This document shows positions 1-53,576 of a stretch of 64,000 bases of DNA, piece by piece. Position numbers and translations under genes: made by a program. Numbering within the stretch: the stretch's first letter is position 1; each line of letters starts with the position of its first letter. This stretch comes from an uncultured bacterium. GTDB lineage: Bacteria > Hydrothermota > UBA3072. The notes under the pieces are model-generated. The model was given only the letters and a program-made list of their open reading frames with translations. It was not told where the DNA came from and made no database searches. The stretch is from NCBI GenBank assembly GCA_964525555.1, contig CAZGHN010000006.1, positions 74,805-138,804 on the forward strand. Reading direction: 5' to 3'.

Positions 1-389
1 AACAATGGATAAAAGTAGATGTTGGCTCAACTAAAATATCTCCAAAAGGTAAATATGTTATGGTTTTAGACCGTTACCTGATTGATTTCACTGACGTTAA
101 ATCGGGGAAATCTCTCTGGCGAAAGAAAACAGGGGGCGAAGGCGGAATGGTTGAAGTCTTTTACGGCCTTGACGATGAATACATTGTTATAGAGGGACAG
201 TCAAACGAATACCTGACCTTCTTTTTGAATGAATATCGTGATTACAATATTTTTGTACTTAAATCGTCTTCGGGAGAAGTTGTAGGGAAATTTAAAGGAT
301 ATCAGCTTTCCTTCTCTAGTGAGTATAATATTTTATTTTTTAAAAATGGAGATACTCTTTTCTTTTACCAGCTTACTTTAGAGAAGTGA
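1..389 (+). CDS. hypothetical protein, C-terminal part (5' end outside window)
   Basis: Frame of ORF 60..389 stays open back to nt 3; no recognisable motif. Confidence 0.35.
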   Translation, partial: QWIKVDVGSTKISPKGKYVMVLDRYLIDFTDVKSGKSLWRKKTGGEGGMVEVFYGLDDEYIVIEGQSNEYLTFFLNEYRDYNIFVLKSSSGEVVGKFKGYQLSFSSEYNILFFKNGDTLFFYQLTLEK

Positions 390-460
390 CTGATGTCTTG
401 GTTAACCACAGATAGCCCAAACAATTTTGTTTTTTTAATTCAACATTCAAAATTCATAAT

Positions 461-532
461 TCAAAATTCTTAATCAATGCTTCGCATTGCTCCCTTGACT
501 TATGAGAATGATTTTTTAAATTTTATACTATG
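461..532. repeat. 72-bp interspersed element, copy 1 (palindrome CAATGC-TTC-GCATTG plus TTGACT and TATACT boxes)
   Basis: Exact 72-nt identity with 2046..2117; both copies preceded by TTCAAAAT oligo-repeats. Confidence 0.8.
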
Positions 533-1232
533 AGTATAAGAACAGTAATAGGAAAGTATAAACAGGAATCGGGCAAATTGTAAAAAGCATCGATGTTATA
601 ATAATTATCCATAATGTTACTCTCTGTAAAGTAGTTAAATTCTTTGCTCTATCACGTTTTATCAGTAGACCTACATCAAATATAAATAAAAGAGGTAAAA
701 CAAAAGGTGTGAATATAATAACAACCGAAAGTGGTAATATTTGAAGAGCATGACCAAAACCCATGAAAGTAAAGCTAAAGAAAAAGTAAAGCCATACCCA
801 TAAAACAATTTTAATTACTTTATCTCTTAAAAAAAGCTCCTCTTTTACATCCGAAAAAGAAAGCGACATTCCTGCAGGTTTCATTATCAGTGTTAGTAAA
901 CCAACTATAAGCCCTATCAATCCCCAGCCAATAGCGTTAACCAGCATTACCAGAGGATGAAAAAATCCTGTTTCAACATTATATTCGACCACTCCATTAA
1001 TTACATTGGAAACAGGATATATTTTTAACAGTAAACTTGGCCAATTGGCTATATAAAAAAGATTAGCGCCCACATTAACATAATCTTCTCCAACAGACAG
1101 AAATACACTTGTTGAGAGATCCCAAAATTTCAGTATCCAGAGCAACCCTATGAAAAATAACACTACAGTAATTATAAGTTTTGCTTTTTTAGATATTTTT
1201 TTCTTCATATATTTATTTTTACTAGTTCTCAT
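528..1232 (-). CDS. multi-pass integral membrane protein, function unknown
   Basis: 234-aa ORF with several long hydrophobic segments; lies between the two 72-bp repeat copies. Confidence 0.5.
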   Translation of the reverse strand: MRTSKNKYMKKKISKKAKLIITVVLFFIGLLWILKFWDLSTSVFLSVGEDYVNVGANLFYIANWPSLLLKIYPVSNVINGVVEYNVETGFFHPLVMLVNAIGWGLIGLIVGLLTLIMKPAGMSLSFSDVKEELFLRDKVIKIVLWVWLYFFFSFTFMGFGHALQILPLSVVIIFTPFVLPLLFIFDVGLLIKRDRAKNLTTLQRVTLWIIIITSMLFTICPIPVYTFLLLFLYS

Positions 1233-1984: not shown

Positions 1985-2045
1985 GGGGGGTGGGGGTGAC
2001 TGTTGGCTGGGTTTTTGTTTTCATTCAAAATTCAAAACTCAAAAT

Positions 2046-2117
2046 TCAAAATTCTTAATCAATGCTTCGCATTGCTCCCTTGACTTATGAGAATGATTTT
2101 TTAAATTTTATACTATG
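2046..2117. repeat. 72-bp interspersed element, copy 2; probable promoter/operator region of the 2207-6301 operon
   Basis: Identical to 461..532; lies about 90 nt upstream of 2207 on the same strand. Confidence 0.8.
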
Positions 2118-2206
2118 GGTATATGTTCTTATTTAGCTGTTCGACGATTTGACTGCTCTTTTATGTTTAAGAGCTATAAGTCTATTCAAAGGAGGTTTAT
2201 TGAAAA

Positions 2207-2872
2207 ATGATTGCAAAATTTAATCTATATGATTTCGTAGCAGCGGTAATACCTGGAATTCTATTTATCTGGGTATTTTCTTTGTTCTCGAGTTCCATAG
2301 ATATTCCTATTACTGGTGGACTTGCTGAAACCTCAATTCTTGTGGCTTTGGGATATGTGATTGGGATGATGCTACAAGGAATTAGCCAATTATTCACAGA
2401 AAAGATTTTATTGATACTTTGGGGTGGTTTTCCGTCTGCACGTTGGCTTCTCGAAGAGGATAATAAATTCAGCAGAGAATATAAAAACAAATTAAAAAAA
2501 TTAGTTGAAGATAAATATTCTGTTAAAATTGACGACAAACTGTCCAAAGAAGAACGTCTGAAGAAAAACCAAGAAGTTTTCTATCTTTGTTACAATGCCG
2601 TTGAAAAAGAGCGAATTAGCGACAGGCCTTATATATTCAATGCGCATTATGGTCTATTCAGATGCCTTCTAACCACATTTATTCTACTTTTTTTTGTTGA
2701 GCTGTACGCTCTTTTAATAGATAAACAGCAAAATAAAGCCGTTATCTATAGTGTTCTAATTCTTAGTATCATTGGTATAATAGTAAGTTATTTTCGTGCG
2801 AAACAGAGAGGCGAGGATTTTGCTAAATCTATCTATGATCTTTTTTTGGTGCGATTTTCAGAACGAGAGTAG
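2207..2872 (+). CDS. membrane protein (two N-terminal and two C-terminal TM helices), first gene of the MBL/E2-E1-JAB operon; possible effector
   Basis: Hydrophobic helices FVAAVIPGILFIWVFSLF, ILVALGYVIGMMLQGI, LLTTFILLFFVELYALLI, VIYSVLILSIIGIIVSYF; RBS AAAGGAGG before ATG; stop 16 nt before next gene. Confidence 0.55.
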   Translation: MIAKFNLYDFVAAVIPGILFIWVFSLFSSSIDIPITGGLAETSILVALGYVIGMMLQGISQLFTEKILLILWGGFPSARWLLEEDNKFSREYKNKLKKLVEDKYSVKIDDKLSKEERLKKNQEVFYLCYNAVEKERISDRPYIFNAHYGLFRCLLTTFILLFFVELYALLIDKQQNKAVIYSVLILSIIGIIVSYFRAKQRGEDFAKSIYDLFLVRFSERE

Positions 2873-2888
2873 CTAGGGAGGGTAATAG

Positions 2889-3956
2889 ATGTCAAACGTA
2901 GCAAAAGACATAATCATTCCAACTGAGCCTAATATCTTCCGAACAATATTCCTCTATGTCGGACAAGGAGACTCTACATTGCTAGTAGTCCCTGCGGGAG
3001 ACGGGTATAAGTATGTATTAATAGATTCAAATTATGACGAAGCCGCTGGTGGTATAGATATTATCAAACTCCTTGAGAACCTTTTCGAAGAAGAAGACGA
3101 AGGTTTAGATGTTTATATAAACACCCATCCCCATAAAGATCATCTCGGAAAGGTTAGGGAAATATATGAAAAGATAGGTATTGGCCAATTATGGCATTCA
3201 GGGCACAAGCCAGGCGGCGAGCATAATGAATCTTATAAAGACCTCGAATTTGTAATCAAAAAACTTGGGGAAGAAAATGTATTTCGCCTTCGAGGTAGCA
3301 GGGAAGAAAACAAATTAGATGAAGAAAAAATTATACTAGGCGACATAAATTACAACATTTTGGGCCCTGCCGATTATGTATCCGATGAAATAGAAGACGA
3401 AAAACCCAAAGAAAGATATACTAGGATTCATGAGCAATGCGCGGTAATTCGATTTAAATACGGAGAAGAAGAGAAACAGATACTCATTACTGGAGATGCA
3501 GATTACAAAGCATGGAAAGAACATATTACTGATTACCACGCGGATAGACTTCCTTCGACAGTGTTAAATGCTGCTCACCATGGTTCAAGGTCTTTTTTCT
3601 GGAAAGATGATAATATGGAGGAAGACCCTTACAAAAAACACTTAGAGAAAATCAAACCGACTTATATTACAGTTAGTGCCCCAAAAGAAAAGGAAAGTAG
3701 GCACGGCCACCCTCATAAAGAAGCCTTGAAGTTATACAAGGAAGAAGTAGGAACTGATGATAAGGTTTTTCATTTAGGCAAGAAAAGAGAATGCATAATT
3801 GTTGATATATACGCCGATGGTGATATAGACCTCTATCCTAATGATGAGTTGGTTAAGAGATATGGAAAAAAGAACGGAGACAATGGGGGTGACGACAAAA
3901 GAACAGGGATTCCGCCAACAGTCACAAAAATCGACAAGAAACCAATGGGTACTTGA
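2889..3956 (+). CDS. metallo-beta-lactamase-fold hydrolase (ComEC/Rec2-like MBL subfamily)
   Basis: GQGDS near N-terminus and HxHxDH motif THPHKDH (nt 3122-3142); later His/Asp ligands (HSGH, TGDADY, AAHHGS); strong RBS GGGAGGG; stop overlaps next start (TGATG). Confidence 0.75.
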   Translation: MSNVAKDIIIPTEPNIFRTIFLYVGQGDSTLLVVPAGDGYKYVLIDSNYDEAAGGIDIIKLLENLFEEEDEGLDVYINTHPHKDHLGKVREIYEKIGIGQLWHSGHKPGGEHNESYKDLEFVIKKLGEENVFRLRGSREENKLDEEKIILGDINYNILGPADYVSDEIEDEKPKERYTRIHEQCAVIRFKYGEEEKQILITGDADYKAWKEHITDYHADRLPSTVLNAAHHGSRSFFWKDDNMEEDPYKKHLEKIKPTYITVSAPKEKESRHGHPHKEALKLYKEEVGTDDKVFHLGKKRECIIVDIYADGDIDLYPNDELVKRYGKKNGDNGGDDKRTGIPPTVTKIDKKPMGT

Positions 3957-6301
3957 TGGAATGGTTCGCTCGTCACACTGGCTGGTTATATAGAGAAACA
4001 AGGGAACTTTCAAAAAATTCAATCTACAGTGAACAGCACCAATTTATAGACAAAACACTCATATCTAGCGGTAATATCTTAGTCCATAAGATAAAAACAG
4101 AATACTTTCCGATTTTAATCGTATATCCTGAAGCTACACCTTATGTCCCTCCTACGATATACCTTTTAGAAAATGAGATAAGTGAGGAAACAGCGAAAGA
4201 ATATTCGGAGCTTTCTCCTGAAGAGATAAGAAAAAGCGTAAAGGATAACATTGCATTTTTCTATAGGCGACATCAGAATGAAGATGGAAGCGTATGCTTT
4301 GTTGAAAGGGGTGACTTACATGATGAAAACCCAGAGAAATATCCTATTGAAAACATAATTAAAAGGTTGAGGGTATGGCTGTCTGGAAAGAAGATACCAA
4401 AGGACAGTCGTGAAGTTGAACTGTTTTATCATTTTCCAAACAGAACTTACGAAATTCAGTATCTCCTGCCGGATTTGTTCTTTGATAGGGAAATAGTAAA
4501 AGGAAAATTCTTTGCAGGACTGTCCAGCCTTATTACAGCAAAATACTTTACAGATGGTACCGAGAAAAGGACATTCATGGGAGTAATGATAGTCGGGGAA
4601 ACACAAGGAGGTGTGTCTCTTCCTCCCAAGTATTATGTAAAAAAACAGCTAATTCTATTTACTCACATTCCGGATATAGAGCATTTGATAACAAATAATG
4701 AGGAAAAAGCAAAGAAAATAGAAAATGGGGAATTAATAGAAGGACACTGGTGGAATATTACTAAAGAGCCTCTACCCTTTTCAAAATTAAATGAGCTTGC
4801 AAAATATATCGGTAACAATGATGAGGTAAAAGGATTTGATATGATGGTAGAAAGCTTAGAATCTGAATTGAAAGCATTTGAAGACTTCATTCACGTAGGA
4901 ATCAGATTTCCCGGAAGGTATAGAGAAAGAGATTGGCAAATGTTTAGACTCAACAAAGGAAGCCGTCCACCAATTATTGTATCCCAAAGGGAAGAATTGA
5001 AACAGCGGGTGCTCGATTACTCTATCGAAGCAGTGTATCAGGAGTATCTTACTGATGATTATTTCCACATGCGAAATAAGGGAAGAGCCGATAGAAGTAT
5101 CTTGAAGAATAAAACTATATCAATTATCGGTTGTGGTGCGCTTGGCTCTGAAACTACTGATGCACTGAGTAAAGCCGGAATAGGAAGATTTATTCTAGTA
5201 GATAGAGAAGTGATGAGGGCTCACAATACTGTTAGGCATAGTCTGGGTATAAATAAAGTAAGCATACCTAAGGCATGTGGTATGGCGGAACATTTGATTC
5301 TTCACAATCCTTTTATAAATATTGAATGGGAACATGAAGACATTCTGCTTGCCAAGATCGAAGATTATTTGCCCGAGGGTGCTATTGGGGTTTCAACCAT
5401 AGCTGATGACAATATAGAAGCTTACCTTAATGAAATAGCCATGAGTCAGGGAAGAACAATCTTCTATTGTAGGGCTTTGCGTGGTGGGAAAGCCGCGCGC
5501 ATATTCAGGGTCGTTCCGCAGATAGATGCATGCAAGACTTGTTTGGGGCTTTATCTCAGAGATAAAAATCCCTTTTTTATTAATATCCCAGAAGATGAGA
5601 GTCTTCCGGTTATAACAAATGAGTGCAACAACCCAGTAAGGCCTGCGAGTGCGGCCGATATGAAAATGATCTCTGGAGTTTTTGCGAGAATCATCATTGA
5701 TTTCCTACAGGGTAAGAGAACAGATAACAACCATTGGATTTGGACATCCGAATCTCTGGAAGGATTGAATATGGAAAATTCAACATATGGGTTTATAAAT
5801 GCAGAAAGCATAGCACCACACCCTCATTGTCTTGTTTGCCAGAAATTGGAAGACGCGAAAGTATATATTTTAAAAGATGTATTGGACTTCATGAAACGGG
5901 AAGCAACAAAATCTGGTAAAATCGAAACAGGGGGAGTTTTAATTGGACACATGTTGGCTAAAGGTGAGTATAAAATTTTAAAAGCAAGTAAGCCTGGCCC
6001 AAATGCTATAAGAACCGAGAATCGCTTTGAGAAAGATGAAAAATATTGTCAAAAAGTGCTTTTGGATGCTTTTGAAGAGCTCGATGATCAAGGCCTTTAT
6101 TTAGGAGAATGGCATTATCATCCTTTGGGTAGCAACGAACCAAGCGGAATAGATATCAATAGCCTAACAGAGATAGCAATTCAAGACAACTACCGGATAG
6201 ACAAACCAATAATGATAATATTATCACCGAAGTTGGAATATGCAATTACAATTCATAATAGGTTTGGCCGATGTGTTAAAATACCCTTGAAGATTGTATG
6301 A
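3956..6301 (+). CDS. E2(UBC-like)-E1(ThiF/MoeB-like)-JAB/MPN(JAMM) triple-domain ubiquitin-like conjugation enzyme
   Basis: N-terminal UBC-like signature YPEATPYVPP...RRHQNEDGSVCF (HPN-like motif plus Cys, nt 4271-4297); central Rossmann ISIIGCGALGSETTDALSKAGIGRFILVDREV (nt ~5123-5200); C-terminal JAMM motif E...HYHPLGSNEPSGID matching HxHx7Sx2D (nt 6113-6160). ATG 3956 used; ORF track begins at TTG 3953. Confidence 0.8.
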   Translation: MEWFARHTGWLYRETRELSKNSIYSEQHQFIDKTLISSGNILVHKIKTEYFPILIVYPEATPYVPPTIYLLENEISEETAKEYSELSPEEIRKSVKDNIAFFYRRHQNEDGSVCFVERGDLHDENPEKYPIENIIKRLRVWLSGKKIPKDSREVELFYHFPNRTYEIQYLLPDLFFDREIVKGKFFAGLSSLITAKYFTDGTEKRTFMGVMIVGETQGGVSLPPKYYVKKQLILFTHIPDIEHLITNNEEKAKKIENGELIEGHWWNITKEPLPFSKLNELAKYIGNNDEVKGFDMMVESLESELKAFEDFIHVGIRFPGRYRERDWQMFRLNKGSRPPIIVSQREELKQRVLDYSIEAVYQEYLTDDYFHMRNKGRADRSILKNKTISIIGCGALGSETTDALSKAGIGRFILVDREVMRAHNTVRHSLGINKVSIPKACGMAEHLILHNPFINIEWEHEDILLAKIEDYLPEGAIGVSTIADDNIEAYLNEIAMSQGRTIFYCRALRGGKAARIFRVVPQIDACKTCLGLYLRDKNPFFINIPEDESLPVITNECNNPVRPASAADMKMISGVFARIIIDFLQGKRTDNNHWIWTSESLEGLNMENSTYGFINAESIAPHPHCLVCQKLEDAKVYILKDVLDFMKREATKSGKIETGGVLIGHMLAKGEYKILKASKPGPNAIRTENRFEKDEKYCQKVLLDAFEELDDQGLYLGEWHYHPLGSNEPSGIDINSLTEIAIQDNYRIDKPIMIILSPKLEYAITIHNRFGRCVKIPLKIV

Positions 6302-6492
6302 TAAATAGATTTGCAAGAACCATTTTTAGAAATTAACAGACTTAGACATTGAAATGATTTCATAGATTCTTCGAATCAGTTGAATTGTCAAATCGTTGAA
6401 TAGTTGGATAGTAAGAAAAAACTTCGTGTCTTAGTGTCTTCGTGGCTAATTAGGGGTTGTGGGTTGCTGTCAGCCGTGAGCGGTCAATCGTC

Positions 6493-6576: not shown

Positions 6577-7368
6577 ATGAAGCTTGATGATGTAGAGATA
6601 TCGAAAGCGATAATTGATAACTACTACAAAAAATTGCTGGATTCCTTAGAGCTGGATGTGGCTCTTGTCGGGGCGGGTCCTTCAAATCTTATAGCTGGAA
6701 TACTTTTAGGAGAAAAGAAAATTAAAACTGCTGTTTTTGAATCAAAGCTCGCTCCGGGTGGAGGTGTTTGGGGTGGGGGAATGATGTTTAATGAGGTGGT
6801 TGTTCAGGATTCGGCTTTGCATATTTTGGATAAAGTCGGTGTGGATTATAAAGAAAAAAAGAAAGGATACTATACCGCGGACAGCGTTGAATTGGCTTCG
6901 ACTTTAATTTCAAAATGCGTTAAATCGGGAGTAAAAATATTTAACCTTATTAAAGTTGTGGATGTCATGTTCAGAGAGGAAGATGGCGAGAAAAAGGTTA
7001 ATGGACTTGTGCTTCAATGGTCTCCGATTGAGCATATTGGATTACACGTAGACCCCTTAACGGTAAGAGCTAAATTTGTTGTAGACGGAACCGGACATCC
7101 CGCAGAAGTTTGTTCTGTTCTTTCAAAGAAAATAGATGCGAGGCTCAGTACTAGAACGGGTAAAGTGATTGGTGAAATGTCTATGTGGGCTGATAGGGGG
7201 GAGGAATTGACTGTTAGTAATACTTCGGAGGTTTTTCCCGGTCTTTTTGTAACCGGTATGGCTGCAAATGCTGTAAAGGGCGCTCCGCGCATGGGTCCCA
7301 TTTTTGGAGGCATGTTGCTTTCGGGTGAGAAAGTCGCAAAGATTATCTCACAGAGGACACAACAGTAA
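6577..7368 (+). CDS. thi4: thiazole synthase, Thi4 family
   Basis: Dinucleotide-binding motif VALVGAGPSNLIAG; Thi4-like length and layout; next to thiE. Confidence 0.75.
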   Translation: MKLDDVEISKAIIDNYYKKLLDSLELDVALVGAGPSNLIAGILLGEKKIKTAVFESKLAPGGGVWGGGMMFNEVVVQDSALHILDKVGVDYKEKKKGYYTADSVELASTLISKCVKSGVKIFNLIKVVDVMFREEDGEKKVNGLVLQWSPIEHIGLHVDPLTVRAKFVVDGTGHPAEVCSVLSKKIDARLSTRTGKVIGEMSMWADRGEELTVSNTSEVFPGLFVTGMAANAVKGAPRMGPIFGGMLLSGEKVAKIISQRTQQ

Positions 7369-7449
7369 TTATGAATGTTGAATGTTAAATGTTGAATTCA
7401 AAACTCAAAATTCAAAATCCTAAATCCCAATTTGAAGGTTTAAAGCAGA

Positions 7450-8046
7450 ATGGATTTTAATTTCGGGGCATATGTTATAACGAGTAAAGATCACGTAAAA
7501 ATAGCCCGGGAGGCGTGCGAAGGCGGGGCACGCGTTGTTCAATATAGAGATAAAACTTCCATAAAGCAAGAAGTGTTGAATATTGCCGATAAAATCAGAG
7601 AGATAACGAGTAATTTTAATTCATTATTTATTGTTAATGATTTTATCGATATAGCTTTAATGTCGGGAGCGGATGGGGTTCATCTGGGACAGGATGATAT
7701 GCCGCTGCCGAGGGCAAGAAAAATCGTTCCTGATAATTTTATTATCGGTGTTTCCACCAATTCGTTGGAACAGGCGCTTAAGGCAGAAGAAGCCGGAGCC
7801 GATTATATCGGAATTGGTCCTGTTTTTGCTACGCCTACTAAAAAAAATTATAAGCCCATCGGGCTTTCTGCAGTTAAGGGAGTACTTGCCAGTGTAAGAA
7901 TTCCTGTTGTTGCTATTGGAGGTTTAAATCTTGATAATATCGGTGAGTTAACTGGAATAGGTGTTAGAAACGTTGCAATGGTAAGAGCCTTTCAAGAAAA
8001 TACAAGGGAAAAAGTCGAAAAAGTTAATTTTTTGCTGAAAGTATAG
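7450..8046 (+). CDS. thiE: thiamine-phosphate synthase
   Basis: ThiE-like TIM-barrel motifs GADGVHLGQDD and IGPVFATPTK. Confidence 0.8.
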   Translation: MDFNFGAYVITSKDHVKIAREACEGGARVVQYRDKTSIKQEVLNIADKIREITSNFNSLFIVNDFIDIALMSGADGVHLGQDDMPLPRARKIVPDNFIIGVSTNSLEQALKAEEAGADYIGIGPVFATPTKKNYKPIGLSAVKGVLASVRIPVVAIGGLNLDNIGELTGIGVRNVAMVRAFQENTREKVEKVNFLLKV

Positions 8047-11094: not shown

Positions 11095-11580
11095 ATGCCA
11101 ACTAAAGAAGAATCATTTGAAGCAGAATTTCAATCGATAAAAGATAATTTGGAAGACCTTTGCAGGGAGACAAAAGCGCTCTCGGTCTTGCTTATAGATA
11201 AGGCCGGGCAACTTATAACCTCTGCCGGGAATGTTTCTTCTATTGATATACCATCTTTTGCCACTCTATCGGCGGCTGATTTCGCAGCCACTTCAAATCT
11301 TGCAGATTTGATCGGAGAACATGATTTTTCAACTCTGTTTCACCAGGGAGTTCAAAAGAGTATTTATGTTTCATTAATTGCGGATAAGGTAATTCTTGCA
11401 GTTATTTTTACAAAGGAGACAACGCTGGGTTTGGTGCGTATAAAGGTTAAAAAAACGGCAGAAAAACTGGCAGGTTTGTTCGGAAAGATATTCGATGTTC
11501 TTGAGAGTGAGTATTCTGGAGCGGTAGATGATGATTTTATTAGTGAAGCGGAAACGGAACTTGATAGTCTTTTTGAATAA
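11095..11580 (+). CDS. mglB: Roadblock/LC7-domain protein (MglB-like GTPase-activating partner)
   Basis: Roadblock-like alpha/beta pattern; immediately upstream of MglA-like GTPase; start abuts porB stop. Confidence 0.6.
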   Translation: MPTKEESFEAEFQSIKDNLEDLCRETKALSVLLIDKAGQLITSAGNVSSIDIPSFATLSAADFAATSNLADLIGEHDFSTLFHQGVQKSIYVSLIADKVILAVIFTKETTLGLVRIKVKKTAEKLAGLFGKIFDVLESEYSGAVDDDFISEAETELDSLFE

Positions 11581-11592
11581 AATGGAGAAAAA

Positions 11593-12171
11593 ATGGCGCT
11601 TATAAATTATTCTTCGAAAGAGATAAATTGTAAAATAGTATATTACGGTCCTGGACTTGGCGGTAAAACTACGAATATCAAACACATATATTCAAAGGTA
11701 AATCCCGATCACAGGGGAAAATTGATGAGTCTCGATACAGAATTGGATAGAACACTTTTCTTTGATTTCTTACCTGTAGATTTGGGTACTGTTAAAGGTT
11801 TCTCAGTCCATTTTCATCTTTACACCGTTCCCGGTCAAGTTTATTATAATGCTTCCAGAAAACTTATATTGAAAGGTGTTGATGGGTTAATCTTTGTTGC
11901 CGATTCCCAGATAGAAAGATTTGAAGATAATATAGATTCGATGGAAAATCTTCACGACAATTTAAACGAATATCATAAGAAAGTTGAAGAGATACCTTTA
12001 GCAATTCAGTATAATAAAAGAGATTTGCCTAATATTGTTTCTCTTAATGAATTGGAAGACGCTTTGAATCCGCGAGGCGTTTTCTTCTGTGAAGGTGTTG
12101 CTGTAGAAGGTATTGGGGTTTTTGAACCTCTTAAAGAAGTTTCTAAAAAAGTCTTAAGAAAACTTAGATAG
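11593..12171 (+). CDS. mglA: MglA-like Ras-family small GTPase
   Basis: P-loop GPGLGGKTT, switch region and NKRD G4 motif. Confidence 0.7.
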   Translation: MALINYSSKEINCKIVYYGPGLGGKTTNIKHIYSKVNPDHRGKLMSLDTELDRTLFFDFLPVDLGTVKGFSVHFHLYTVPGQVYYNASRKLILKGVDGLIFVADSQIERFEDNIDSMENLHDNLNEYHKKVEEIPLAIQYNKRDLPNIVSLNELEDALNPRGVFFCEGVAVEGIGVFEPLKEVSKKVLRKLR

Positions 12172-12173
12172 CT

Positions 12174-12205
12174 TTAACGCGGCACAGCCGCGTTAATTTT
12201 GAATG
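12174..12205 (+). terminator. intrinsic terminator ending the por-mglBA operon
   Basis: Perfect 10-bp stem TTAACGCGGC-aca-GCCGCGTTAA followed by a T-rich run. Confidence 0.65.
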
Positions 12206-12235
12206 TTGAATTTTAAATTTTGAATTAGGAATTCC

Positions 12236-12583: not shown

Positions 12584-12721
12584 TTTGTACCTTTTGTTAG
12601 TTCAGAATTCTAAATTAATAATTCATTACTTTTTTTAAGTTTTTCATTCAAAATTCAAAACTCAAAATTCAAAATTGTCATAGTTCATAATTATTATCAT
12701 TTTTGGATTTCTCTATATACT

Positions 12722-22854: not shown

Positions 22855-25002
22855 TTACCTTATCCTTATTACTTTCTTTGAAATTTTAATGTTTCCTGAT
22901 TTTAGTATACCAAAGTACAATCCCGACCCGAGTTTATTGCCTGAATGGTCGCTTCCGTCCCACAAAATAATTGTTGGAGAAGAGCTATTATTTTCTAAGG
23001 AAAAGGATTTTACCAGCTGTCCGTTTACGTTATAAATGGAAAAAGCGGCATCTTTTATGCTATTGTTACCGGCTAGATAGAGAATAAATTCCGTTCTATT
23101 GCTGAAAGGATTAAGCGAGATATTGAAACTTAGAGGTATTGAGTTGTTTGTAGGGGTTTCTATACCTGCTTCTTCATCCTGAAGGACCCAGACTGTTCCA
23201 CCCTCGTGACACATTACGTAGATTTTGTTCGTTTGCGAATTTACTCCAACTTCCCAGGGGGCATCTCCGACTTCGATAGTCGTAATCACGGAATCTGTAT
23301 TTCCGTCAATTACACTGGTATTGTCATTATACTCATTTGCTGCAAAGATGTGGTTCGACTGTGGGTTTACACCTAGTCCTTTTGGCCAGTTTTCGACATC
23401 AATAGTGTCAATCACTAAGTTAGTAGCCCCATCGATTACATGGATACTATCGCATGCAACATATATTCTGTTTGTCTGTGGGTTTATGGCGATCCCTTCA
23501 GGCCAGCTGCCGACCGCAATAGTGTCAATCACGGAGTCAATAGCACCATCGATTGCAACAACACTGTGATTATCCGATTCTGTCACATATATCCGGTTTG
23601 TTTCCGGATTTATGCACATTCCTGATAGCCAGCTTCCAATTGCAGCTGTATCAATAACGGAGTTAGTTGTGCCGTCGAGTACGACAACCTTAGTATTATC
23701 TTCTATTACATATATCCGGTTTGTTTGCGGATTTACGGACATATCTGATATCCAGCTTCCAATTGCAATAGTATCGATCAAGGTGTTAGTAGTTCCGTTA
23801 ATAACGCTAACCTCGTTCTCAGTTCCTACATATATCCGGTTTGTTTCCGGATTCACGCAAACTTCTGACGTATAACCTCCGAGTTCAATGCTGGTAATCA
23901 TGGAGTTGGTAACTCCGTCAATTACGTTGACGCTGTAGCTTTCTCCAGTTGTTACATAAGTTCGGTTTGTTTGTGGATTTACGGCAATATCATTGGGTTG
24001 AACTCCAAGCACGATAGTAGTAATGAGGGTGTGGGTAGTTGCGTCAATCACACTGGCAGTGTGGTTCCAATAATTCGCCGTATATATACGGTTCGTTTTC
24101 AGATTTATAGCAAGCTCCCGCGGTTCGCCTCCAAGTGCGATGGTATCAATAAGTGAATCGAGTGTTACATCAAACACGGTAATAGCGTAGTTGTTTCTGT
24201 CTAAAGAGTAAAGATGGTTGGTTTGTGGGTCTAGACTTATACTGGATGGTCTATGTCCGACATCAATAGTGTCAATCACAGAGTCAGTCTCACCGTCAAT
24301 TACAAAAATGTTACTATAATCATAATTTGCAACATAGATTAGATTTTTTATAGTATCTACCTCAACTCCGAGAGGTCGGTTTCCAACATCAATAGTGTCA
24401 ATCACGGAATCTATAGTTCCGTCAATTACGTGAACATCTTCATCAGCCCAGTTCGTTACATATATGCGCCTGGTTTTTGGATTTGCATCGATTCCATTTG
24501 GCATATTTCCAACCGTAATAGTAGTGATCAAAGAGTTGGTATTGGCATCGATAACACTAACATTGTCGTCACCTTCATTTGCCGTATAGATGAGGTTATT
24601 CTTTGGGTCTATGCTAATTTTATCGGGAGAGTTTCCGATTGCAATAGAATCAATTATGGAGTCAGTTGTCCCATCAATCACATAAATATTGTCGGTGGCC
24701 GGATTTGTCGTGTAAATAAGGTTTGTTTCAGAATTCACTCCGATTTCCCTTGCTGCGTTTGCTAATTCAATAGAGGCAATGACAGAATTGGTTGTACCGT
24801 CGATCACGGAAACATTGTCTGTGAATAAATTTACCACATAGATACGGTTTGTCGCATCATTTACATCAATTGCTGTAGGGCGCAATCCGTTTCCCGATTC
24901 TGGGCGAAGGTATATTGTATCAATAACCGTAACCTGGCTGAACCCAATAATTGTGTAACAGAATATTATAACTGACAATGCGCCTTTTTTTGAAAAAAAC
25001 AT
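22855..25002 (-). CDS. YVTN-family beta-propeller repeat protein with T9SS-type C-terminal sorting domain
   Basis: Many ~43-aa repeats (N..IYV.N..sv.ViDg.T); signal peptide from ATG 25002 with RBS AAGGAG; C-terminal beta-sandwich tail. Confidence 0.7.
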   Translation of the reverse strand: MFFSKKGALSVIIFCYTIIGFSQVTVIDTIYLRPESGNGLRPTAIDVNDATNRIYVVNLFTDNVSVIDGTTNSVIASIELANAAREIGVNSETNLIYTTNPATDNIYVIDGTTDSIIDSIAIGNSPDKISIDPKNNLIYTANEGDDNVSVIDANTNSLITTITVGNMPNGIDANPKTRRIYVTNWADEDVHVIDGTIDSVIDTIDVGNRPLGVEVDTIKNLIYVANYDYSNIFVIDGETDSVIDTIDVGHRPSSISLDPQTNHLYSLDRNNYAITVFDVTLDSLIDTIALGGEPRELAINLKTNRIYTANYWNHTASVIDATTHTLITTIVLGVQPNDIAVNPQTNRTYVTTGESYSVNVIDGVTNSMITSIELGGYTSEVCVNPETNRIYVGTENEVSVINGTTNTLIDTIAIGSWISDMSVNPQTNRIYVIEDNTKVVVLDGTTNSVIDTAAIGSWLSGMCINPETNRIYVTESDNHSVVAIDGAIDSVIDTIAVGSWPEGIAINPQTNRIYVACDSIHVIDGATNLVIDTIDVENWPKGLGVNPQSNHIFAANEYNDNTSVIDGNTDSVITTIEVGDAPWEVGVNSQTNKIYVMCHEGGTVWVLQDEEAGIETPTNNSIPLSFNISLNPFSNRTEFILYLAGNNSIKDAAFSIYNVNGQLVKSFSLENNSSSPTIILWDGSDHSGNKLGSGLYFGILKSGNIKISKKVIRIR

Positions 25003-25127
25003 ATACTTCTCCTTATTTTTACAGACAAATATATTTTGTTTTCCTATTATGTCAACCATTTACTTATAAAAATATCAGTTTATTACTTATAAGGTATTTT
25101 TGTTGCAGAGAGAACACAGAGAATAGA

Positions 25128-28203: not shown

Positions 28204-28348
28204 ATAGGATTAGAAGCAGTGCAAGTCAGCAGTTCTGGGATTATGGATTAAGTGGTAAGTTAAAATTTAGTCCAAAGTCCAAGGTCCTAAGTCCAAAGTC
28301 TTGAGTCAAAACTAAATCCTAAATCCCAAATCAAAACCCCTAGTATTA
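28204..28348. repeat. ~145-bp interspersed element (family R1, subtype ii)
   Basis: Near-identical to 29061..29204; together they flank gene 28440..28970 as direct repeats. Confidence 0.75.
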
Positions 28349-29060: not shown

Positions 29061-29204
29061 ATAGGATTAGAAGCAGTGCAAGTCAGCAGTTCTGGGATTA
29101 TGGATTAAGTGGTAAGTTAAAATTTAGTCCAAAGTCCAAGGTCCTAAGTCCAAAGTCTTGAGTCAAAACTAAATCCTAAATCCCAAATCCAAACCCCTAG
29201 TATT
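29061..29204. repeat. ~145-bp interspersed element (family R1, subtype ii)
   Basis: See 28204..28348. Confidence 0.75.
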
Positions 29205-29365
29205 GCCACAAAGTACACAAATAAAACAAAGATTTTTTTGTTTTAATTCAGAATTCATAGTTCAAAATTATCATCGTCCTTAATCCTGGCTTAACTTCTT
29301 GCTTTTCTTCTAATTACAAAACATTCCCCCCTTGCTCAAAGATTCAAAAAGAATATACTATTTAT

Positions 29366-39966: not shown

Positions 39967-42123
39967 ATGGATTTAATAATAGTTGAATCTCCGGCAAAAG
40001 CCAGAACAATTACCAATTATCTAAAGAAAACTAAGGTAATGGCAACAATGGGTCATATTAAGGATCTTCCGAAGAGTAAGATAGGTATAGATTTTGATAA
40101 TGGGTTCAATCCGGATTATAAAATAATAAAAGGGAAAGGAAAAATTGTAAAAGAGATAGTAAAAGCTAGTAAAAAGAGCGATAGGGTTTTTATAGCAACC
40201 GATCCGGATAGAGAAGGGGAGGCTATTGCCTATCATCTCCAGGAAGAACTGCCGGTTGCGCCCAAAAGAGTTATGTTCTATGAGATGACAAAAAACGGTA
40301 TAAATAAAGGCATCAGCGAACCTTGTGATGTCGATATGAATAAGGTTTTTTCTCAGCGTACAAGGAGAATTCTGGACAGATTAGTTGGGTATAAAATCAG
40401 TCCTTTGCTGTGGAAAGCTATTCGAAGGGGATTGTCTGCCGGGAGAGTTCAAAGTGTGGTTCTCCGGCTTATTTGCGAGAGGGAAGAGGAAATTGATAAT
40501 TTCGTGCCTGAGGATTACTGGGTATTCAAAGGTCTTTTTGTTCATCCCCACGGTGAATTCGAGGCAAATCTTGAAAAAATCGATGGGAAAAAGGCAAATA
40601 TCGCAACTAAAAAGGATGCTGAAAAAATTAAAAAAGCTTTGAAAAATGCTAGTTTTTCAGTTAAAGAATTCAATAAAAGTGACGTTAAGCAGTCTCCTTT
40701 TCCGCCTTTGATAACGAGTACTCTGCAAAGAGGTGCTTCCAACAATTTCGGGTTTCCTATAAAAAAGACAATGTATGTTGCGCAGCGCCTGTATGAGGGT
40801 ATTGCGCTTCCTGAGGGAACAACAGGTCTTATTACTTATATGAGAACAGATTCTTTTAGAATTTCCAAAGATGCCGAAGGAAGTATGCGAAAATTTATTA
40901 AGGATAATTATGGAGATAATTATCTGCCGGCAAAGCCCAATGTTTATAAATCAAAGAAAGGTGCGCAGGAAGCTCATGAGGCAATTAGACCGACAGATAT
41001 AACCAGGACACCGGAATCTATTAAAGAACATCTAAAGCCCGAGGAATATAAGCTCTATAAACTTATATGGGAAAGAGCGCTGGCCAGTCAGTTCGAAGAT
41101 GCTGTTTTTGATTCCAGAAAAGTTACGGTTGAAACTTCCTCTTATGAGTTCAAAGGTTCTTCAAAGAATTTGAAATTCGATGGATTTTATAAAATTCTTG
41201 CTCCTCCTAAGGAGCAAAATATTATACCCCTGATGGAAGTGGGTGATTCCGTAAGCCTTAAAAAACTTGATGACGAGAAAAAAACTACCGAACCTCCTGC
41301 AAGGTATTCCGAAGCTACAATGGTTAGAGAAATGGAAAAACGGGGGATAGGACGTCCAAGTACGTATTCTCCGACCATATCGACTCTTTTGGTAAGAACT
41401 TACATTAAAAAGATAAAAGGTTTTCTTGTGCCTCAGGAAATAGGTAAGATTGTAAATAAAGTTTTGGTTTCTAATTTTGGTTCAACGATTATAAATTGTG
41501 ATTTTACTTCTTCTATGGAAGAAGATTTGGATAAAATCGAGGAAGGTAAGGAAGACTGGCGTAAATCCGTCGAAGTTTTTTATGATTCTTTCAAGAATGA
41601 TCTTGAGGCAGTCGAGGAAAAAATTCCCGAGATTAGAGACAGTATAAGCGAAAAGACAGATAGAAAGTGTCCTAAATGCGGGAAAAATTTGATAGTAAAA
41701 TGGGGCCGTTACGGTAAATTTCTTGCTTGTCCGGGTTATCCGGAGGATTGCGAGGGCTATACTGAACCGCATGAAGATGACATTCTTAATGAGAAATGTC
41801 CTAAATGCGGGGGAAAGGTAATCCTACGTCAGGGGAGGTTCGGGAGGTTTAAAGCCTGCGGGAATTATCCCGAATGTGATTGGAGTGCTTCGGTTTCGAC
41901 CGGCGTAAAATGTCCCAAGTGCGGTAAAGGCGAATTTATTGAAAGAAAATCTAAAAAGGGGAGAGTTTTCTATCCTTGTTCTACCGAAGATTGCGATAAT
42001 GTTTTGTGGGATAAACCAGTTGGGGAAGAGTGCCCAAAATGTAATGCGCCTTTTATGGTTGAAAAGATGAACGCACGCCAGGATTATATTTACTGCCTTG
42101 AGTGTAAACATAAGGAAATGTAA
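39967..42123 (+). CDS. topA: DNA topoisomerase I
   Basis: Toprim start MDLIIVESPAKARTI; C-terminal repeated zinc ribbons CPKCG. Confidence 0.9.
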   Translation: MDLIIVESPAKARTITNYLKKTKVMATMGHIKDLPKSKIGIDFDNGFNPDYKIIKGKGKIVKEIVKASKKSDRVFIATDPDREGEAIAYHLQEELPVAPKRVMFYEMTKNGINKGISEPCDVDMNKVFSQRTRRILDRLVGYKISPLLWKAIRRGLSAGRVQSVVLRLICEREEEIDNFVPEDYWVFKGLFVHPHGEFEANLEKIDGKKANIATKKDAEKIKKALKNASFSVKEFNKSDVKQSPFPPLITSTLQRGASNNFGFPIKKTMYVAQRLYEGIALPEGTTGLITYMRTDSFRISKDAEGSMRKFIKDNYGDNYLPAKPNVYKSKKGAQEAHEAIRPTDITRTPESIKEHLKPEEYKLYKLIWERALASQFEDAVFDSRKVTVETSSYEFKGSSKNLKFDGFYKILAPPKEQNIIPLMEVGDSVSLKKLDDEKKTTEPPARYSEATMVREMEKRGIGRPSTYSPTISTLLVRTYIKKIKGFLVPQEIGKIVNKVLVSNFGSTIINCDFTSSMEEDLDKIEEGKEDWRKSVEVFYDSFKNDLEAVEEKIPEIRDSISEKTDRKCPKCGKNLIVKWGRYGKFLACPGYPEDCEGYTEPHEDDILNEKCPKCGGKVILRQGRFGRFKACGNYPECDWSASVSTGVKCPKCGKGEFIERKSKKGRVFYPCSTEDCDNVLWDKPVGEECPKCNAPFMVEKMNARQDYIYCLECKHKEM

Positions 42124-51844: not shown

Positions 51845-53086
51845 TTACCAGTTTTGAATATCCTGAGGTATGACTTGAATATTTCCGTTATCATAAGACC
51901 CAATTGGACTATAACCACTAACTGCGTTATAATGTTGAAGGAAATCATTATCATATTTGCCTCCACCTCTTTTAATAAGACTCTTCGGATCTTTTCCTCG
52001 ATGTACTTCCTTTACAAATTTTTTCATTCTTGCAAGTTCTATCTCTGCTACCTCTGCTCCGTTCTTCTGGTCTTTATAAACTTTACTAAGATCTAGCCGG
52101 TCGTAACCCTCATAACCTGGCACTATTGCTTCCTCATGTTTGTGAGCAAACATTCCCATGCAGATTTTATCTATATCCCCTTCGCGGATTGTATTCATAG
52201 TACTAAAAAGGGTAACAATTCCCCAGAAAGCAGTAGTTGGAACGCCGGTAAATGCCGCCCCAGCCCAAAACCAATCTTCACCTGTTACAATTTCTGCGGA
52301 GGGGTAAGGTATCTCTTCAGGAGCTGTGGTTAAAGCTCCTGGGAAACGTCTCCTAAGGGTTAAAAATACACTACCCATTGGTACTATCGAACCAGCTGTT
52401 TCAGCCGTCCCTCGACCCAAAGTTACCCTATATACCATATTATCTGTAGTAGTGCGGAATAGGCCTTTCTTATCCACATAATACAACGGATCATTTGTGC
52501 AATAAACATACGGATTAAATGTTTGCGGGTCCGAAAGTTCCAAATTCCCCGGCATAAGCGTATGCGGATCAGGGGATATAAATCTTCCGGTATTACTACT
52601 ATAATACCTCGCACCAAAGTAATTGAATCCCGACTTATCTTTCTCTTTACCAGTAAACTCCCTATTATCCTCATGAGTCCCACTTGATGAGACCACCGCT
52701 CCAAACCCTTCATACGTTTTATCTTTCACAATATCATCCTCATCTGTAATCATAATGGGGGAACCGAGTCTGTCAAGATGATAATAATAGAGATGACCGT
52801 CTTCTTCTTTGGCAAGGAGACGGTTTCCCGCATAGAAATACTTCTTCGGAGGAGTTCGCTCTGAACCCGATTCGCATCGGGCGTTATCCACCCATAATTT
52901 TCCTGAACCGGATAGTTTTATAAGCATTACCTTAAGGGCTTCTACTTCCCATTCGGGCATATTTCCTTCATCTACCGTTAACAATATCTTTTGCCAGTTG
53001 TTTGTTCCTGTTATTGGATTAGATGTTATAAATTTGTTATGACCGATAGAGAGTAAGAATTGTCCAATGTCGAGATGCGACCCCAA
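51845..53086 (-). CDS. orphan rhs C-terminal cassette (start-less): partial CBM-like domain, rhs core end, unique toxin tip
   Basis: YYYHLDRLGSP...NDPLYYVDKKGL; frame opens after stop at 53087-89 (TTG only); 5' end abuts tandem repeat 53079..53151. Confidence 0.6.
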   Translation of the reverse strand: MGSHLDIGQFLLSIGHNKFITSNPITGTNNWQKILLTVDEGNMPEWEVEALKVMLIKLSGSGKLWVDNARCESGSERTPPKKYFYAGNRLLAKEEDGHLYYYHLDRLGSPIMITDEDDIVKDKTYEGFGAVVSSSGTHEDNREFTGKEKDKSGFNYFGARYYSSNTGRFISPDPHTLMPGNLELSDPQTFNPYVYCTNDPLYYVDKKGLFRTTTDNMVYRVTLGRGTAETAGSIVPMGSVFLTLRRRFPGALTTAPEEIPYPSAEIVTGEDWFWAGAAFTGVPTTAFWGIVTLFSTMNTIREGDIDKICMGMFAHKHEEAIVPGYEGYDRLDLSKVYKDQKNGAEVAEIELARMKKFVKEVHRGKDPKSLIKRGGGKYDNDFLQHYNAVSGYSPIGSYDNGNIQVIPQDIQNW

Positions 53087-53151
53087 TTACACACGACCCC
53101 AATTACACGACCCCAATTACAACCCCAATTACACACGACCCCAATTACACA
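53079..53151. repeat. tandem repeat, about five copies of a 13-16-bp unit GACCCCAATTACAC(AC)
   Basis: Direct reading of 53079-53151, ending in inverted GGGGTC. Confidence 0.8.
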
Positions 53152-53576
53152 AGGGGTCAACTTTATTGTATCCAAATTTAAAAATCACTTTGCTGTGATC
53201 AATATAAAATAATTTGCTGCGATTAATAATCCCCTCCTTAATTTAAGATTCTTTATAATTAAAAAATATGTATTTGAAAATAAATGTCAATAGTGGTATG
53301 CAGGGAATATATCGAACGAAGAATTATAAAAAATAGAAGAGGAATCACCCAGAAATGTTTTTAATATTAATTTAAACAGGAGGTAAAAAAAGATTAATTT
53401 AACCCCACCCCTTGACACTTTTCAAAGAAGGTCTGACCCTGTTGCCCCCACTGTTGCCCCCAGAGAAAAGAACGCACGTTAATCTTGACCCTAGATACAT
53501 AGATACACTCATTATACTCCAGCATCATAATCTTAAACCCTTGATTTTTATTTGTAAACCAATATTATTAAAAGAC

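Follow-up and report, generated by a model that had tools for sequence, protein, structure and literature searches.

The operon at positions 2207-6301 of a 64,000-nucleotide stretch from an uncultured bacterium (contig CAZGHN010000006.1; the whole stretch is called the window below) raises the question of what a complete set of E2, E1 and JAB modules would conjugate where no gene for a ubiquitin-like (Ubl) protein is in sight. Its three tightly packed genes, all on the forward strand, encode a four-transmembrane-helix (4-TM) protein of the Csx27 family (2207-2872, 221 aa), a metallo-β-lactamase (MBL) fold protein that is predicted to be a ComEC-like phosphodiesterase or nuclease (2889-3956, 355 aa), and an E2-E1-JAB triple-module protein resembling a fusion of Cap2 and Cap3 (3956-6301, 781 aa). 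The answer that we propose is that the MBL protein is almost certainly itself the missing 'ubiquitin', a Ubl surrogate and enzymatic payload in one, with a conserved glycine of its C-terminal tail as the predicted point of conjugation. The operon as a whole we take, with a probability of about 70%, to be a three-gene anti-phage conflict module of the 6A-MBL class that was acquired horizontally and in which the MBL protein is the conjugated enzyme.

Much of the layout had been described in an earlier sequence-only reading of the window, and it holds up well. The open reading frames (ORFs) of the proposed three-gene operon lie where that reading placed them, and hydropathy gives the protein ahead of the MBL two plus two TM helices, in line with the four that had been claimed. 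The translational coupling reported for the second and third genes is likewise present: they overlap as TGATG (GGT ACT TGA TGG), the MBL stop codon occupying 3954-3956 and the ATG of the fusion 3956-3958. A stop-start overlap or a gap of less than 10 nt between these two genes is repeated in related loci (a neighborhood scan with one genome per species gave 31 loci, of which 30 were analyzed). The length of 782 aa given earlier for the fusion is that of the mechanical ORF, which starts from TTG 3953 (3953-6301); the true start is almost certainly ATG 3956, with a product of 781 aa, because the database protein and all homologues begin there (consensus MSWF; MSWF/MEWF). The TM gene has a ribosome-binding site, AAAGGAGG, at 2188-2195. 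The claimed absence of a CD-NTase or beta-grasp gene also stands for the six proteins scanned, as neither family was detected by Pfam in the products of the three operon genes and three upstream ORFs or by PADLOC in those of the three operon genes. No Ubl-like ORF or family match was found in the operon or its flanks.

It is the C-terminus of the MBL protein that suggests how the machinery could work without such a partner. Residues 329-355 (3873-3953) form a disordered tail, in which a Gly/Asp/Asn-rich linker is followed by the motif K-I-D-K-K-P-M-G354 (3927-3950, with Gly354 at 3948-3950) and one further residue, Thr355 (3951-3953). In the AlphaFold2 model (pLDDT 85.5, pTM 0.87) the core is confident, while the tail has a pLDDT below 50. 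The aligned MBL proteins end in the same manner, with a variable Gly/Asp/Asn/Lys-rich linker and then a conserved (K/R)(I/V/L)DxKPMG. In 26 of 27 loci the motif KxDxKPMG constitutes the C-terminus or lies 1-6 residues from it. The protein terminates with the Gly itself in 14 of these 27; in the other loci 1-6 further residues of unrelated sequence come after it (T in the window; A, D, H, QQ, GSQ, IRK, YDGTLV and others in other loci). Among 120 database homologues of the MBL protein, 102 carry the tail motif, and 33 of those 102 end exactly at G. The remaining motif-bearing homologues mostly have 1-3 variable extra residues, with one outlier extended by 21, and a further handful of the 120 have PFG, SMG or AMG. 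More distant relatives end ...KPMA or ...AAA. The second MBL paralogues that occur in some of the same loci, uncoupled to the fusion gene, do not have the KPMG tail. Gly354 is predicted to be the site of adenylation and conjugation, and Thr355 to be a removable trailing residue.

A similar pattern is known for cGAS in type II CBASS (an anti-phage signaling system based on cyclic oligonucleotides), where conservation of a C-terminal Gly or Ala is confined to operons that include Cap2 and Cap3, a thioester links Cap2 to the cGAS C-terminus, and Cap3 cuts a linear fusion exactly at that C-terminus (Jenson et al.). It is because of this pattern, together with the conserved quasi-terminal Gly, the disorder of the tail and its absence from uncoupled paralogues, that we regard the MBL protein as the conjugated moiety. 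The sequence-only reading had guessed at the MBL protein as a possible substrate, which is now the best-supported reading. Its remark that no neighbor ends in Gly-Gly is literally correct but passes over the KIDKKPMG-T ending of the MBL protein, whose Gly is a conserved quasi-terminal residue. At the level of sequence, the window MBL has the C-terminal Gly/Ala of the CBASS substrates on a protein that is not a CD-NTase, and its conjugation is predicted.

The fusion protein is well suited to such chemistry, as seen in a MAFFT alignment of 105 full-length homologues with 45-76% identity (residue numbers refer to the 781-aa form), and the triple fusion that had been claimed is borne out by catalytic motifs that are invariant or nearly so throughout. 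The UBC-like E2 domain (3956-4435, approximately residues 1-160) contains the motif R105-H106-Q107-N...G111-S112-x-C114, of which H106-Q-N...C114 is encoded at 4268-4300 and the catalytic Cys114 at 4295-4297. A middle domain of α/β type (4436-4990, approximately residues 161-345) joins E2 to the ThiF/Cap2-type E1 adenylation domain (5048-5845, approximately residues 365-630). The conserved E1 residues comprise the Rossmann motif GCGALGS (G392-C-G-A-x-G-S398 in the alignment, 5129-5149), D484, the CxxC pairs 526/529 and 625/628 (5531-5542 and 5828-5839) and, between these two pairs, the invariant C557 (5624-5626), which is the putative catalytic Cys of E1. The JAB/JAMM metallopeptidase domain (5873-6298, approximately residues 640-781) has the complete set of E657 (5924-5926) and H720-x-H722-x7-S730-x2-D733 (6113-6154).

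Profile searches agree with these boundaries. Pfam finds ThiF at residues 377-592 and Prok-JAB at 642-758 (2e-9), PADLOC gives CBASS E1-E2 models down to 4e-28 and JAB at 3.7e-29, and the JAB region matches Cap3 (3.4e-14) and also TIGR02256 in NCBIfam. The PADLOC models of CBASS Cap2 and Cap3 match at 1e-28 to 1e-29, which supports the kinship to the Cap2/Cap3 conjugation toolkit that had been proposed, and Cap2 structures in the PDB are matched by the E1 region. The N-terminus is modeled as a UBC/E2 fold resembling that of Cap2. Pfam does not see the E2 domain and the hidden Markov models of PADLOC nearly miss it (a single match, E 0.0025); sequence profiles being insufficient here, the E2 assignment comes solely from structure comparison. 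No full-length copy of the fusion gene was found in phage genomes, the matches there being partial and limited to E1 or JAB.

The proposal that this is an undescribed module has to be given up, and a false lead is thereby removed. A pair of MBL and E2-E1-JAB genes is operon type 6a, usually of two genes, in the survey of Iyer, Burroughs & Aravind (2006), and the NCBIfam models for 6A-MBL are the top matches of both proteins. For the fusion, 6A-MBL_cap2_3 gives 9.3e-39 and 133.5 bits against a cut-off of 320, and for the MBL protein, 6A-MBL_enzyme gives 1.7e-17 and 63.6 bits against a cut-off of 220 (equivalog cut-offs of NF058523 and NF058524). As in members of the class, the MBL gene (2889-3956) is adjacent to the fusion gene and overlaps its start. 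Because both proteins are well under the equivalog cut-offs, the window copy is a divergent relative and not an orthologue of the characterized system. The operon is thus a divergent member of the known 6A-MBL, or type 6a, class in a three-gene form with a Csx27-like protein.

In the later literature the class goes by the name '6A-MBL', an anti-phage system, or 'MBL pathway'. Ye et al. (2024) cite the MBL pathway as an anti-phage E2-E1 conjugation system and count 'Type II CBASS, Pycsar and MBL pathways' together among those that conjugate 'their respective signaling enzymes'. According to citing papers, 6A-MBL was named and tested in Pseudomonas aeruginosa by van den Berg et al. (2024), and a 2026 review and a 2025 preprint place '6A-MBL' among the anti-jumbo-phage defenses of that species. 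With this system the window operon shares the single E2-E1-JAB chain encoded beside a specialized MBL-fold protein and the mobile, patchy distribution. It differs in the length of the fusion (781 aa versus a model of 665 positions), in the third gene for a Csx27-like 4-TM protein that its clade usually has, and in its host, an uncultivated WOR-3-like bacterium. This clade is known from genes alone, and it is for the characterized system that phage protection is reported in citing papers.

The comparison with type II CBASS is also instructive. The two have homologous E2-E1 (Cap2-like) and JAB (Cap3-like) modules, as substrate, in place of a beta-grasp Ubl, an enzyme whose flexible tail has Gly or Ala at its end, a Cap3-type peptidase that can cut exactly after the tail residue, and exchangeable membrane and patatin partners. 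In contrast to CBASS, the operon has no CD-NTase, the enzyme to be conjugated being a ComEC-type MBL hydrolase; E2-E1 and JAB reside in one chain, many substrates of the clade are synthesized in a pro-form that is longer by 1-6 residues, and no cyclic-nucleotide sensor domain is recognizable in the partners. The Bil and Bub operons differ in that each of the parts, beta-grasp Ubl, E1 and E2, is a protein of its own, whereas the present operon lacks a Ubl gene and has a fused E2-E1. Bub furthermore uses serine in place of cysteine, while the cysteines of the window protein are invariant.

We infer the following course of events, in which the biochemical steps, the DNase activity, what the TM protein does and the anti-phage function of this clade are all predicted. 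The ComEC-like MBL protein would bring along a built-in 'ubiquitin tail' of about 27 residues, a flexible linker with KIDKKPMG at its end. Gly354 would be exposed when the JAB domain of the fusion trims Thr355, and the E1 domain would adenylate this glycine and hold it as a thioester. The thioester would then move to Cys114 of E2, and the MBL protein would be ligated to an amine, probably that of a lysine, of a target. Such conjugation would prime or relocalize the MBL protein, most likely a Zn-dependent DNase, and the JAB domain would also undo it. The Csx27-like 4-TM protein would be an exchangeable membrane part, either a membrane-damaging co-effector or a membrane anchor or target, for which patatin phospholipases are swapped, or to which a second MBL is added, in other genomes. 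In this scheme both jobs of JAB, maturation and reversal, are predicted by the disordered KPMG tail, which is often made in a pro-form longer by 1-6 residues, and the 6A-MBL class would be one in which bacterial E1-E2 machinery tags whole enzymes and not Ubl domains.

The nature of the payload is indicated by the MBL core. Pfam finds Lactamase_B in the 355-aa protein, and its metal-binding motif H80-P-H82-K-D84-H85 (3126-3143) belongs to a set of ligands, H80xH82xD84H85, H181, D203, H230-H231 and H274, that does not vary among 38 aligned homologues. Structurally the protein is closest to nucleases and phosphodiesterases and most similar to the nuclease domain of ComEC, and the PADLOC and NCBIfam models of defense-associated MBLs give weak cross-matches (LmuA 3e-8, Avs1a 3.5e-3, and RTasMBL). 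The family of the window MBL is small, comprising 31 clusters at 50% identity with E values of 1e-30 or better. In AVAST, Hachiman, Lamassu and DRT, a ComEC-like MBL that goes with a fused protease is a latent Zn-dependent DNase, and the MBLs of the first three systems are dsDNA nucleases. Since the metal ligands are invariant, related ComEC-like MBLs are DNases and the cross-matches exist, we favor a DNase payload: by analogy with ComEC and the defense-associated MBL pronucleases, the protein is most likely a Zn-dependent DNase.

The first gene of the operon encodes a member of the Csx27 family, as its sequence indicates. Between the two pairs of TM helices lies a cytoplasmic loop of about 80 residues that is rich in Lys, and PADLOC matches Csx27 at 3.1e-13 over nearly the full length (residues 3-197 versus model positions 2-184 of 206), followed by PDC-M48A at 3e-5. 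The NCBIfam model CAS_Csx27 matches residues 3-195 at 8.2e-7. In its four helices and near-full-length alignment the protein thus resembles Csx27, the accessory of type VI-B1 CRISPR-Cas13b, but it scores 29.3 bits against an equivalog cut-off of 65, its neighbors are MBL and membrane-protein genes with no cas13b adjoining, and the window contains no CRISPR-like array. The Csx27 family was reportedly linked by Makarova et al. in 2019 to ubiquitin-system multidomain proteins and to ComEC-like competence components, and the window protein likewise stands beside a ComEC-like MBL and ubiquitin-system domains, as is said of the wider family. The Csx27-like TM family is very divergent and has only a handful of conserved positions in its alignment. 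A conserved loop lysine that might serve as acceptor was looked for in this alignment, and there is none.

Related loci bear out the core pair and show the third gene to be variable. A gene-neighborhood search, which the sequence-only reading had suggested as a check, finds an intact MBL gene directly 5' of the fusion gene in 25 of the 30 loci and a fragmented one in one more (L029). The third gene varies in kind and position: a Csx27-like protein with 2+2 TM helices adjoins the core pair in about 20 of the 30, upstream in the close relatives of the window and downstream in Bacteroidota and Paenibacillus, and a patatin-like protein takes the place of the TM gene in three. A second MBL paralogue with a strong PADLOC match to PDC-M48B (down to 2.6e-42) is present in four loci, and several loci seemingly have the two core genes only. 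Because the PDC-M48B-like MBL usually adjoins the Csx27-like TM gene (paralogues at L006 3069-3932, L019 11438-12292, L020 10301-11182 and L021 10366-11391), the candidate two-gene system PDC-M48, TM plus MBL, appears to be a module attached to the 6A-MBL core. With its exchangeable Csx27-like, patatin and second-MBL partners, the clade is suited to asking what conjugation does to a ComEC-type nuclease and what proteins of the Csx27 family do.

The hosts of these loci are scattered over Desulfobacterota-type metagenome-assembled genomes (MAGs), Atribacterota, Bacteroidota, Paenibacillus/Aneurinibacillus, a Citrobacter MAG and others. Paenibacillus polymyxa and Hymenobacter carry the system on plasmids, where integrases and a KAP NTPase are encoded close by; one locus lies in an island of type I restriction-modification, Fic and AAA_15-21 genes and another beside HicA and IS91. 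Two loci contain decayed copies with frameshifts (L010 1208-3568 and L029 6849-10348), the fusion gene being spread over 2-4 ORFs, and in L029, on the chromosome of Niabella defluvii, the MBL gene is split in two as well. As for the window itself, clues to its host are a beta-propeller protein with a C-terminal sorting domain of the type IX secretion system (22855-25059) and a bacterial TopA (39967-42123), whose closest named relatives are from candidate division WOR-3 (73% and 69% identity). The nearest relatives of the system (70-76% identity), in contrast, are in other phyla, which points to acquisition of the operon by horizontal transfer into a bacterium of the WOR-3 lineage.

Several rival explanations share much of this evidence and differ in what they make of the MBL protein. 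In a CBASS-like scheme, conjugation would boost the MBL protein as a signal-making or signal-processing enzyme, and the Csx27-like TM protein or the patatin would be a killing effector activated by its product. The MBL protein indeed has the operon position and the tail chemistry of the CD-NTase, the third genes belong to classes of CBASS effectors (TM proteins, patatin), and the grouping by Ye et al. with the conjugation of 'signaling enzymes' is in the same sense. However, the MBL fold hydrolyzes and does not cyclize nucleotides, its closest structures being those nucleases and phosphodiesterases; no ligand-sensor domain is recognizable in the TM or patatin partners, and none of the CBASS effector models picks up the patatins. 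Moreover, because type 6a operons usually have two genes (Iyer et al.), as several of the present loci apparently do, the MBL itself is the more natural payload. A signaling role is ranked second, behind the DNase payload, and we consider it unlikely. The tail could alternatively tie the two halves of a membrane device together, E2-E1 ligating Gly354 to the Csx27-like protein or to a membrane lipid, as with Atg8, so that a split ComEC-like channel and nuclease, covalently joined at the inner membrane, would destroy phage DNA where it enters and JAB would dismantle the assembly afterwards. This is an improbable variant; if true, conjugation would build an effector complex instead of priming a signaling enzyme, and a first function of the Csx27 family would explain its presence beside Cas13b. 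A little less probable again is a device for DNA uptake and degradation, which Makarova, Gao, Zhang and Koonin are said to have hypothesized in 2019, with a Csx27-like membrane conduit, a ComEC-like MBL degrading one strand and E2-E1-JAB regulating both. In favor of such a device are the Csx27-family homology of the TM protein, an MBL whose best likeness is the nuclease domain of ComEC, and the repeated occurrence of TM+MBL pairs (PADLOC PDC-M48A/B) beside the core genes; the 2019 prediction is summarized in citing literature. Yet no other competence genes are seen in the loci examined, the TM gene can be replaced by a patatin, which is not a channel, and patchy spread, 70-76% identity between distant phyla, plasmids and decayed copies are typical of defense genes; anti-phage activity of 6A-MBL is reported in later literature.

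The remaining two explanations dispense with conjugation of the MBL protein. JAB might cleave the MBL to unmask a latent DNase, with E2-E1 as a sensor or scaffold. The protease-MBL pronucleases of AVAST, Hachiman, Lamassu and DRT have the same gene grammar, a ComEC-like MBL just 5' of a peptidase fused to a larger defense enzyme; cleaved MBLs of the HamM/Avs1a type are Zn-dependent dsDNA nucleases, and the weak matches of the window MBL to LmuA, RTasMBL and Avs1a fit. This is nevertheless very improbable, as about one third of the MBL family already ends at Gly and has nothing to cleave, a trailing peptide of only 1-6 variable residues is too short to mask an active site, and the invariant ATP-binding residues of E1 and the E1 and E2 cysteines argue for adenylation and thioester chemistry. 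The peptidase here is, besides, a JAMM enzyme with E1 and E2 and not of the trypsin, caspase or subtilisin type, and control lies with a C-terminal Gly tail, not with insertions that block the active site. An ordinary ThiF/MoeB sulfur-carrier activator, finally, would account for the Pfam ThiF match and for the genes directly 3' on the same strand, thi4 (6577-7368, thiazole synthase) and thiE (7450-8046, thiamine-phosphate synthase), which are followed by por genes. The sequence-only reading had itself named such an activator with a degenerate E2 region, or a conserved cofactor operon, as what would overturn it, and neither was found. All ThiF/MoeB equivalog models score far below their cut-offs (52.6 versus 159 bits for the best ThiF model), the E2 motif is invariant, and the fused E2 and JAB would have no role in sulfur transfer. 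The thi4 product is of the sulfide-dependent type, which does not use ThiS/ThiF. Homologues of thi4, thiE and porG are absent from all 30 related loci, so that a thiamine or molybdopterin housekeeping role is effectively refuted and the adjacency of the thiamine genes is coincidental.

The conjugated-payload reading that we prefer has its own difficulties, and they should be weighed with it. About 10-15% of the MBL homologues are without the tail motif, most of them truncated and a few of full length. The role assigned to the TM protein finds no support in a conserved lysine or a recognizable domain, no sensor for the detection of phage is evident, and the patatin partners match no PADLOC effector model. 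The immediate neighbors of the operon in the window are housekeeping genes and not a defense island. Both proteins being under the 6A-MBL equivalog cut-offs, function is not simply transferable from the characterized system.

The region upstream of the operon had been described as a duplicated 72-bp element with a palindromic, operator-like site. The repeat and the palindrome are real, but the two copies are about 103-112 nt long, at least 94% identical, 1585 nt apart and not in tandem. Copy 2 (2021-2123, forward strand, about 103 nt) contains a heptamer array at 2022-2056, the palindrome CAATGC-TTC-GCATTG at 2060-2074 and, adjoining it about 100 nt before the TM gene, a sigma-70-like TTGACT-16-TAAATT at 2080-2107. 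This copy is probably the promoter region of the operon, and a regulatory role would be in keeping with these motifs. Copy 1 (436-538, forward strand) lies in the gap between the convergent genes 60-389 (forward) and 528-1232 (reverse) and is probably outside the system. The direct repeat brackets two minus-strand genes (528-1232 and 1347-2024) for multi-pass membrane proteins of no Pfam family, and it may be the mark of a duplication or insertion of this two-gene segment. The two genes were considered as components of the system and discarded, as they have no homologues in the 30 related loci. In a public assembly of this organism from short reads, a break falls within the repeat.

An operator-like role as a feature of the system could not be sustained. 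Neither the palindrome nor the repeat occurs in any of the related loci that were compared, no alignment is obtained between the regions upstream of the closest homologous operons, and the heptamer array (AATTCAA)n that makes up the element's 5' part is found again at no fewer than six intergenic sites of the window. By these comparisons the upstream element is a feature of the host genome and not of the system. Arrays of 4-5 copies of AATTCAA (or AACTCAA) are located at 437-471, 2022-2056, 7378-7422, 12192-12233 (reverse strand), 12645-12672 and 29245-29265, all intergenic and several between convergent genes. A 21-mer of the heptamer has 16 matches with at most 3 mismatches in the window versus 0.02 expected; the motif, intergenic and taken to be genome-wide, is possibly a terminator-associated sequence, curved DNA or a regulator array. 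An inverted repeat (2130-2153 and 6387-6410, 19 of 24 positions complementary, core GTCAAATCGT) flanks the three-gene operon nearly exactly and is reached by 1 of 200 shuffles of both flanks. Terminal inverted repeats as the ends of a cassette were discarded, since nothing comparable is found around five related operons.

Some further features of the window were noted in passing. A second heptamer (AGTCCAA/AGTCCTA, about 4.6 copies) forms two near-identical arrays at 28269-28311 and 29126-29168, 857 nt apart, which bracket a stretch without an ORF of at least 180 aa, and five tandem copies of a unit of 14-16 nt (CGACCCCAATTACACA) are found at 53078-53151, intergenic and 5' of a gene starting at 53412. 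Scanning the window for Rfam families and tRNAs gave no hits. By eye, the translations suggest that an ORF of the size of Roadblock/LC7 proteins (11095-11580) is followed by one for a small Ras/MglA-like GTPase (11593-12171), for which NCBIfam gave no match.

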